Below, piece after piece: positions 13,504-14,578 of a stretch of DNA of 26,554 bases. The number at the start of each line of letters is the position of its first letter. Position 1 is the stretch's first letter. A model generated the notes under the pieces. It saw only the letters and a list, made by a program, of their open reading frames with translations. It was not told where the DNA came from and did not search any database. The DNA is from Candidatus Heimdallarchaeota archaeon. GTDB lineage: Archaea; Asgardarchaeota; Heimdallarchaeia; Heimdallarchaeales; Heimdallarchaeaceae. The translations under genes were made by a program, and so were the position numbers. The stretch lies in contig JABCTC010000047.1 in assembly GCA_018238545.1 (NCBI GenBank), positions 1-26,554 of the forward strand, given 5' to 3'.

Positions 13504-13932
13504 TCAAACTGGATAGAGGAGTACTGGAATCGATGCTAGCTCAATAACGTATCTAATATGGTTTTTTAACAATCTCTTTGCCATCCTCTCTCTTTTCGTA
13601 CCCATTGCTATAAAATCTACTTTTTCTTTCAATGATGCTTTAATAATTGATTCTGATATTATACCTGTTTCAATACTAGACGTAATATAAAGATGAGAAT
13701 CAGAATAAATGTTAACTAGCTTATTCAATATATTTTCACTTTCAGCTTTGCACTTATTTTCTACATCTTCTATAGATTCCCCTCTAAAGTCTGCTAGATG
13801 TTGAACCGTTTCGCTATCAATAACATTGATGAGATGAATCTCAGTAACCCAGTCATCAAAAAAGTCGATGATCTGTTTGATCATGCTTATTCCACTTTCA
13901 AAATCACCTATAGCTACTAGTGCTTTTTTAAT
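13504..13932 (-). CDS. Universal stress protein (UspA family) inside the ATPase operon, probable ATT start
   Basis: IHLINVID, I...S.KEKVDFIAMG and V...ASIPVLL motifs. The frame extends upstream of ATG 13884 to IKKALVAIGDFES, the expected USP first strand, giving 142 aa from ATT 13932. Confidence 0.82.
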   Translation of the reverse strand: MKKALVAIGDFESGISMIKQIIDFFDDWVTEIHLINVIDSETVQHLADFRGESIEDVENKCKAESENILNKLVNIYSDSHLYITSSIETGIISESIIKASLKEKVDFIAMGTKRERMAKRLLKNHIRYVIELASIPVLLYPV

Positions 13933-14578
13933 TGTGAACGCCTCTTTTTCTCAATTTTTTCTCTTCTAACTTACTTTTCAATTTCTTAATAGTGTAAATG
14001 TTCTCTAATTCGTATGATTCAAGAGATTCTTCGATAAATTTGATTATATTTCGAAATCTCACTCTATACACTTTATCTAAAGCATTCAGATTTAGTTGTA
14101 TTGATTGTAAATTGTTCATGATTCTAAAAGCAAGACTCTCAATTTCTGCAAGCTGAATAATTAGATGAAATGTGTCTCTGAACCTTTCTGCTGTTACCCA
14201 TAAAAGACTTGATATTCCAAAAAACCCATAGGATGTATCAGGTAGTTTTTCTACCTCTAAATTCACGTAATCAACTCCCATATACTCTGTAGCCATAGAT
14301 TGAATCTCAACTTCCTTAGGTATTGTGTCACTGAAAACATTAATCATTTCTCTTCCAAGTTCAGATTCTGTTTTGATATATTCAATGTAAGCTTCACTCA
14401 GGCATTTTTCCATCTCAGTTCTTAAAGTAGCAATCTCTGCAGTTATTATATGTAATTTCATTAGGAGAGCTTCATATTTTTCTCGTAAAAGATCATATGC
14501 CCTTTCAACCAACTTTAGTTTCCTCTTATATTTGAGCAAATTATCTTTTGTTGGTGAAATGGTGATAGCTTCTCTCAT
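13928..14578 (-). CDS. atpD: A/V-type ATPase subunit D
   Basis: SPTKDNLLKYKRKL...AYDLLREKYEAL, YMGV and LNAL motifs. ATGA overlap with the atpB stop. Confidence 0.92.
   Translation of the reverse strand: MREAITISPTKDNLLKYKRKLKLVERAYDLLREKYEALLMKLHIITAEIATLRTEMEKCLSEAYIEYIKTESELGREMINVFSDTIPKEVEIQSMATEYMGVDYVNLEVEKLPDTSYGFFGISSLLWVTAERFRDTFHLIIQLAEIESLAFRIMNNLQSIQLNLNALDKVYRVRFRNIIKFIEESLESYELENIYTIKKLKSKLEEKKLRKRGVHN

Follow-up and report, generated by a model that had tools for sequence, protein, structure and literature searches.

The window (the whole 26,554-nucleotide stretch of DNA analysed here) encodes an A/V-ATPase gene cluster in which a gene with the universal stress protein (USP) fold lies between atpD and atpE. 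The USP gene (13504 bp–13932 bp, minus strand) consists of 142 codons and a TGA stop when read from the ATT at 13932–13930. It is preceded by the central stalk gene atpD of a set that we have designated type-2 (13928 bp–14578 bp, minus strand; PF01813, 103.9 bits) and followed by the peripheral stalk gene atpE (12858 bp–13493 bp, minus strand; PF01991). Also encoded on the minus strand are atpB of the type-2 set (14575 bp–16038 bp), the product of which is 51% identical to the type-1 B subunit; atpA (15977 bp–19429 bp), which carries an intein and a LAGLIDADG domain; atpI (10818 bp–12848 bp; PF01496); atpK, encoding a c subunit of 154 amino acids (10364 bp–10828 bp; PF00137 in two matched stretches); and a probable atpH encoding a G-like coiled coil (8982 bp–9314 bp), which gave weak V-ATPase_G matches only. 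The plus strand encodes atpC (AC39; 9296 bp–10354 bp; PF01992) and atpF (19445 bp–19834 bp; PF01990, 47 bits). Subunits A, B, C, D, E, F, H, I and K are all represented, eight with Pfam support and H weakly supported. As the full subunit set is present, the USP is an addition to it and not a substitute. A USP replacing F or H was considered and rejected, F having Pfam support and a weak H/G-like candidate being present. The listed atpB open reading frame, with a TTG start at 16038 bp, shares 62 nt with the end of atpA (15977 bp–16038 bp), and atpB probably starts downstream of this TTG. Directly upstream of atpA, the minus strand between 19817 bp and 23258 bp encodes a GNAT acetyltransferase, a TPR protein and an AMP-forming acyl-CoA synthetase-like gene; the 3′-end of the GNAT gene overlaps atpF on the opposite strand.

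Two A/V-ATPase sets are present in this genome, the other (type-1) on contig C102. The type-2 atpD was found to be ~29–30% identical to the type-1 atpD of same-genus genomes. The type-1 B subunit of C102 scored ~600 bits against the Methanosarcina A-type B, whereas that of the window scored 490–508 bits against the B subunits of Thermus, yeast, Enterococcus and Methanosarcina (solved A- and V-type enzymes) alike. On the B tree the window's B formed a long branch and did not group with those of other USP-bearing operons. By these comparisons the USP operon is a divergent second A/V-ATPase set, and two sets in one genome raise the question of the second enzyme's purpose. The type-1 atpD stands alone on contig C102 of this genome (G000; loci L062 and L088), ~10 kb from A-B. 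Lone type-1 atpD genes, with no atpA or atpB within ~6 kb, were also seen at L149, L151–L155, L157–L159 and L161–L166, and occur in families f1, f3, f5, f7, f9, f13, f14, f27, f30, f31 and f33.

Analysis of the stop-to-stop frame (13504 bp–13950 bp) revealed a match to the Pfam Usp family PF00582 that scored 46.4 bits (cut-off 24) and spanned profile positions 2–141 of 141 and residues 7–147. PF00582 was the only Pfam match, and none of the nine A/V-ATPase subunit families was matched. The orthologs P0093 and P0242 also matched PF00582. A search for a specific NCBIfam family found none, the UspC and UspG models scoring ~20 bits against cut-offs of 167–189. Eighteen orthologs were aligned over USP residues 1–142, and an AlphaFold2 model built from this alignment (mean pLDDT 88.4) showed five strands and four to five helices. 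The closest PDB match by Foldseek was MJ0577 (1mjh; TM 0.79); the matches listed were USPs or USP-like proteins, with TeaD among the lower ranks. The first-pass annotation had read this frame as a USP gene between atpD and atpE, and both the Pfam score and the USP fold of the model bear this out. No other PF00582 match was found in this genome (92% complete), and USPs are scarce across the genus.

The junctions on either side of the USP gene measure −1 nt (atpD/USP) and 10 nt (USP/atpE). The USP stop TGA (13506–13504) is followed by AGTGAT and then by the atpE ATG (13493–13491), which agrees with the earlier statement that the gene ends 10 nt before this ATG. The USP/atpE junction and the atpE ATG were retained in the orthologs. 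At the other end, the atpD stop overlapped the USP start or lay within 13 nt of it at all 19 loci (ATGA, TAATG or ATTAA). Overlapping gene pairs can be coupled by termination-reinitiation, which has been documented in archaea (PMC6728339), and they frequently encode subunits of one complex (PMC10666635). Translation of the USP would be tied to that of atpD by the overlap or abutment of stop and start. The proposal of the first-pass annotation that the USP is co-transcribed with the ATPase genes is consistent with the stop/start overlap and the 10-nt gap, and these junctions together with the conserved gene order argue for a single transcript. A programmed frameshift producing a D-USP fusion was rejected: the USP frame is +1 to atpD without a canonical slippery site, many orthologs have in-frame stops 1–7 codons upstream, and the junctions vary. 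A search among longer proteins for fused (Rosetta-stone) USP-ATPase forms found none, which is weak evidence.

The 5′-end of the USP gene is less simple. The frame opens after an in-frame TGA (13953–13951), and the first ATG, GTG or TTG occurs only at 13884 bp. The position given earlier as the beginning of the gene, 13944 bp, holds GAG, which is no start codon. In the alignment the place of the ortholog starts is taken by the ATT at 13932–13930 (minus strand), which shares one base with the atpD TAA (ATTAA); the overlap with the atpD stop that had also been described therefore holds if this ATT is the start and fails for any other start. Among the orthologs the aligned codon is ATG in ten, GTG in one, ATT in five and ATC in two. 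A Shine-Dalgarno-like GAGG (13941–13944, minus strand) lies 8 nt before the ATT, the spacing at which GAGGAG or GAGGTG precedes the ATG of orthologs, and a motif of this type was found ~8 nt upstream of the aligned start codon in every ortholog. Three codons before the ATT there is a GCG (13939–13941, minus strand), which is GTG in the ATT/ATC relatives (L002–L007 and L019). This GTG is usable as a start in L002–L005, L007 and L019, and gene callers place the start there in the ATT/ATC clade, giving a product of 145 amino acids; in L006 it is followed by an in-frame TAA, and the ATT is retained. The first canonical start in the window is the ATG at 13882–13884 (minus strand), which is codon 17 and encodes leucine in nearly all orthologs. 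Initiation there would give a 126-amino acid product without the central strand beta-1, and the database copy of the window's USP (P0006, on 4 contigs) is this 126-amino acid call.

Two changes unique to this genome fall together between 13882 bp and 13941 bp, GTG to GCG and leucine codon 17 to ATG, and their coincidence suggests that the start codon is shifting or that decay has begun. The gene could be decaying or already shortened in this genome, making only the 126-amino acid product, which would not be expected to fold as a USP because strand beta-1 is missing. Such a loss would fit the lack of a canonical start before 13884 bp, the unique Met17 and the 126-amino acid call on 4 contigs; in addition, the GTG at codon −3 in L002–L005, L007 and L019, and the N-terminal methionine of P0093, which is three residues ahead of the aligned isoleucine, suggest that the start of the clade moved to that position. 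Set against this, the frame upstream of the ATG is open and its 16 codons specify the very residues seen in the orthologs, differing from L002 at a single synonymous site; dN/dS against close relatives is 0.19–0.35; the GAGG keeps its spacing to the ATT; and L006, which also has no usable GTG, keeps the ATT as well. We regard decay as quite improbable. Initiation would take place either at the near-cognate ATT, probably by ribosomes ending atpD, or at the ATG at 13884 bp, and because the 16 codons between them encode the exact ortholog sequence we favour the ATT at 13932 bp as the start in this genome. The N-terminal stretch IKKALVAIGDFESG is the part of the protein whose presence would mark initiation at 13932 bp. 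As a near-cognate ATT would be reached by ribosomes finishing atpD, expression of the USP in this genome is probably low.

A search of 40 relatives with the single protein found the full-length USP in 17 same-genus genomes and an eighteenth copy (L019, genome G014) in which the contig ends inside the USP gene. A profile search of 399 Asgard genomes returned the same 18, the full-length copies scoring 238–258 bits and the next best protein in the phylum 52 bits. The order B-D-USP-E-I was present at all 18 full-length same-genus loci, the window included, one of them ending at a contig edge before I. The same order in the other genomes shows that the arrangement is not due to chance. The neighbourhood survey suggested by the first-pass annotation thus located the USP at this position in every genome carrying the operon, and it was not absent from relatives. 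Identity to the window in these genomes falls to 54–57% for the USP, ~70% for atpD and ~45–50% for atpE and atpI. The median pairwise dN/dS of the USP (0.18) lay between those of atpD (0.11) and atpE (0.26), and by these ratios the USP gene is under purifying selection, like the neighbouring subunit genes. AtpD of the window type (at least 59% identity) was restricted to the 18 same-genus genomes returned by the USP searches and a single genome from a neighbouring genus (g11, G051), where contigs break inside atpD and inside atpE and hide the junction. In the five genomes of the genus that lack the USP, atpD is of the other type only. This co-presence and co-absence of USP and operon is not independent evidence of a link, since adjacency explains both.

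Outside the genus, a profile search of 1.8 billion representative proteins added just two more, distant, orthologs. One of them, P0242 (MHA1687424.1), is numbered next to a type-2-like AtpD (MHA1687423.1) that is 58% identical, and for both accessions the longest contig is 52,886 bp. From the adjacent accession numbers and the shared longest contig we infer that the D-USP adjacency extends beyond the genus, to a more distant Heimdallarchaeaceae lineage.

The genomic context of USP genes was surveyed at ~80 loci, all within the Asgard phylum. When the ortholog profile was run, four of the six best-scoring proteins outside the ortholog family were ATPase-linked, and USP genes lie within the ATPase operons of four other Asgard families. 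The arrangement is D-USP-K-I in families f16 and f17, in one of them with an ATGA overlap, and D-USP-I in f21; in three f20 genera, D-I is followed by a small zinc-ribbon membrane protein gene and then by the USP. In one further case (G255, L121) the USP follows an A-like gene. The linked ATPase operon was the only one detected (a single atpD match) in four of five USP-linked genomes, G281 (f21) having a second atpD. The f20 protein encoded between atpI and the USP (L111, 5942 bp–6340 bp; L112, 5907 bp–6320 bp; L131, 2944 bp–3363 bp) is 132–139 amino acids long, has a membrane segment at its N-terminus and a CxxC...CxxC zinc ribbon at its C-terminus, and may be another unannotated component of the ATPase operon. 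Six f20 genomes (G145, G198, G183, G205, G261 and G270; loci L130 and L137–L141) have a second A-like gene (~590 amino acids, 41–44% identical to type-1 AtpA) ~600 nt downstream of atpI of an A-B-D-I operon.

The association of USP genes with Asgard ATPase operons is recurrent but patchy. In a sample centred on atpD, a USP was present in 3 of 23 A-B-D-type operons and at none of 17 isolated type-1 atpD loci, the former count indicating that the ATPase works without a USP in most Asgard lineages. The USP tree placed the linked genes in three clusters (the Heimdall family of the window; f16 with f17; f20 with f21) on a backbone that was not resolved. A single clade of all linked USPs was not rejected (AU p = 0.17), which allows a single old origin without showing one, and the B-subunit tree requires at least four gains or losses of the linkage. 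USPs are versatile proteins that are found in many operons, frequently as passengers. The protein could accordingly be a small stress- or ligand-binding protein with its function elsewhere, riding on a strong ATPase transcript and held in place by tight gene packing, and both this versatility and the patchy linkage on the B tree are what such a passenger would lead one to expect. That account is an unlikely one in our estimate: the only USP of the genome is always tied to the type-2 operon, four further families show such a placement, stop/start overlaps are characteristic of genes whose products share a complex (PMC10666635), and the loss of the ATP-binding motif is consistent in linked USPs and not in unlinked ones.

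The region of the ATP-binding motif was read as MGTKRERMAKRLLKNH (13558 bp–13605 bp, minus strand; residues 110–125), a basic loop that replaces G-x2-G-x9-G(S/T). It runs M-G-T-K-R-E-R-M-A-K-R-L-L-K-N-H or, by motif position, G-TK-R-x9-N-H. The first-pass annotation described this stretch as degenerate and very basic; the motif is lost throughout the family, the second and third motif glycines and the Ser/Thr being substituted in 18 of 18 orthologs. The 27 ATPase-linked USPs compared (the 18 orthologs and nine from other families) all lacked the full motif (0/18 and 0/9). Of 47 Asgard USPs in the same loci set that are not linked to an ATPase, 38 had it; these figures are counts and not a test, because related sequences are not independent. 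The last motif position is G-H-(V/I)-T in common to the linked f20 and f21 USPs and N-H-(I/V)-R in the window's family. The residues around the former nucleotide cleft were the most conserved part of the protein, and the basic segment of residues 115–122 was modelled at low confidence. The loss of the motif suggests that the USP does not bind ATP in the canonical way. It does not prove that nucleotide binding is lost, because TTHA0350, a tandem USP of Thermus, binds ATP without a detectable motif (PMC12159084).

The reading that we tentatively prefer, at a little under an even chance, is that the USP is a dedicated accessory or regulatory protein of the ATPase that does not bind ATP canonically. 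In its favour are the fixed gene order, the purifying selection, the tight junction with atpD, the status of the gene as sole USP beside a full subunit set, and the missing motif in linked USPs; against it are the patchy association, the frequency of USPs as operon passengers and the lack of a canonical start upstream of 13884 bp in this genome. A USP-type dimer would bind the soluble A1 part or the stalk of the ATPase encoded by the surrounding operon. Contact would be made through the former cleft (D10-F11-E12-S13-G14, D39, M110-G111-T112, E115, N124 and R127), with the flexible basic arm of residues 113–123 also forming part of the surface, and the protein would act by this contact and not as an ATP switch. 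Binding might gate or stabilise the enzyme, for example by restraining wasteful ATP hydrolysis or by preserving the coupling of A1 to AO under some condition; whether it would brake, stabilise or help to assemble the enzyme is a guess. A bolder form, which we consider rather unlikely, is that Asgard rotary ATPases have a genuine tenth component in the form of a USP dimer that no longer binds ATP and docks on A1 or the stalk as a built-in brake or clutch, possibly with a single ancient origin across Heimdall- and Loki-group lineages. In that case it would be the first protein known to regulate an A/V-ATPase of the archaeal type.

The same gene position could also suit a transient assembly factor that helps to fold or assemble the stalk or A1, for instance by retaining D or E until their incorporation, and is not part of the mature enzyme. 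The gene sits between those of stalk subunits D and E and is coupled translationally to D, a lost ATP motif fits a scaffold role, and expression appears low in the ATT/ATC clade. On the other hand the f20 USP gene follows atpI and is not between stalk genes, and most Asgard ATPases assemble without a USP; we know of no USP that serves as an assembly chaperone, and we hold this explanation to be improbable.

An accessory protein that acts on the finished enzyme, the preferred reading, would have parallels among rotary ATPases. Their protein regulators include IF1, the C-terminal helix of epsilon, the zeta subunit, AtpTheta and subunit H of the V-ATPase. Some of these regulators are small, curb ATP hydrolysis and have genes that lie with those of the enzyme or close by. 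The window USP resembles these in the kind of role proposed only: IF1, epsilon, zeta and AtpTheta are helical and H is an ARM-repeat protein, whereas the USP is alpha/beta and has no sequence or fold relation to any of them. V-ATPases are the eukaryotic descendants of the archaeal A-type enzymes and are heavily regulated; to our knowledge no protein regulator of an archaeal A-type ATPase has been described. Literature searches for a USP in an A/V-ATPase or ATP synthase operon found no relevant paper, and a 2025 review of archaeal USPs makes no mention of operons or of Asgard archaea. If the preferred reading is true, one member of a family whose functions are mostly unknown would gain a specific partner and task, and the case would show what a USP does after it has ceased to bind ATP. 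The operon can be expressed with and without the single 142-codon gene.

Among USPs, the best structural match is MJ0577 of Methanocaldococcus jannaschii (TM 0.79, 24% identity), an ATP-binding archaeal USP with the motif G127-x2-G130-x9-G140 (PMC12159084). The two proteins share a hydrophobic C-terminal strand and differ in the motif, the corresponding segment of the window USP being G-TK-R-ERMAKRLLK-N-H. Both also carry a D-F-(S/E) motif after strand beta-1. The literature searched describes no link of MJ0577 to an ATPase.

The E. coli UspA/UspC class does not bind ATP, and UspC scaffolds the KdpD sensor; KdpQ is a USP-like gene in the kdpFABCQ operon of Halobacterium, an operon not found in the literature searched. 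As in the mechanism proposed here, these cases involve USPs that do not bind ATP and influence an ion-pump system through protein contacts, and KdpQ would parallel the window as a USP gene in an archaeal operon for an ion-pumping ATPase. The Kdp cases differ in that the pump and the regulators concerned belong to a P-type system and not to a rotary ATPase.

The closest studied case is TeaD of Halomonas elongata (PDB 3hgm), an ATP-binding USP that is encoded with the teaABC TRAP transporter genes and modulates the activity of TeaABC (PMC9006882). TeaD binds ATP, whereas the window USP has only the first of the three motif glycines and no Ser/Thr, and its presumed partner is a rotary ATPase and not a secondary transporter. 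Like TeaD (3hgm_A; Foldseek TM 0.69), it consists of a single USP domain, and its gene shares a cluster with those of a membrane transport machine.
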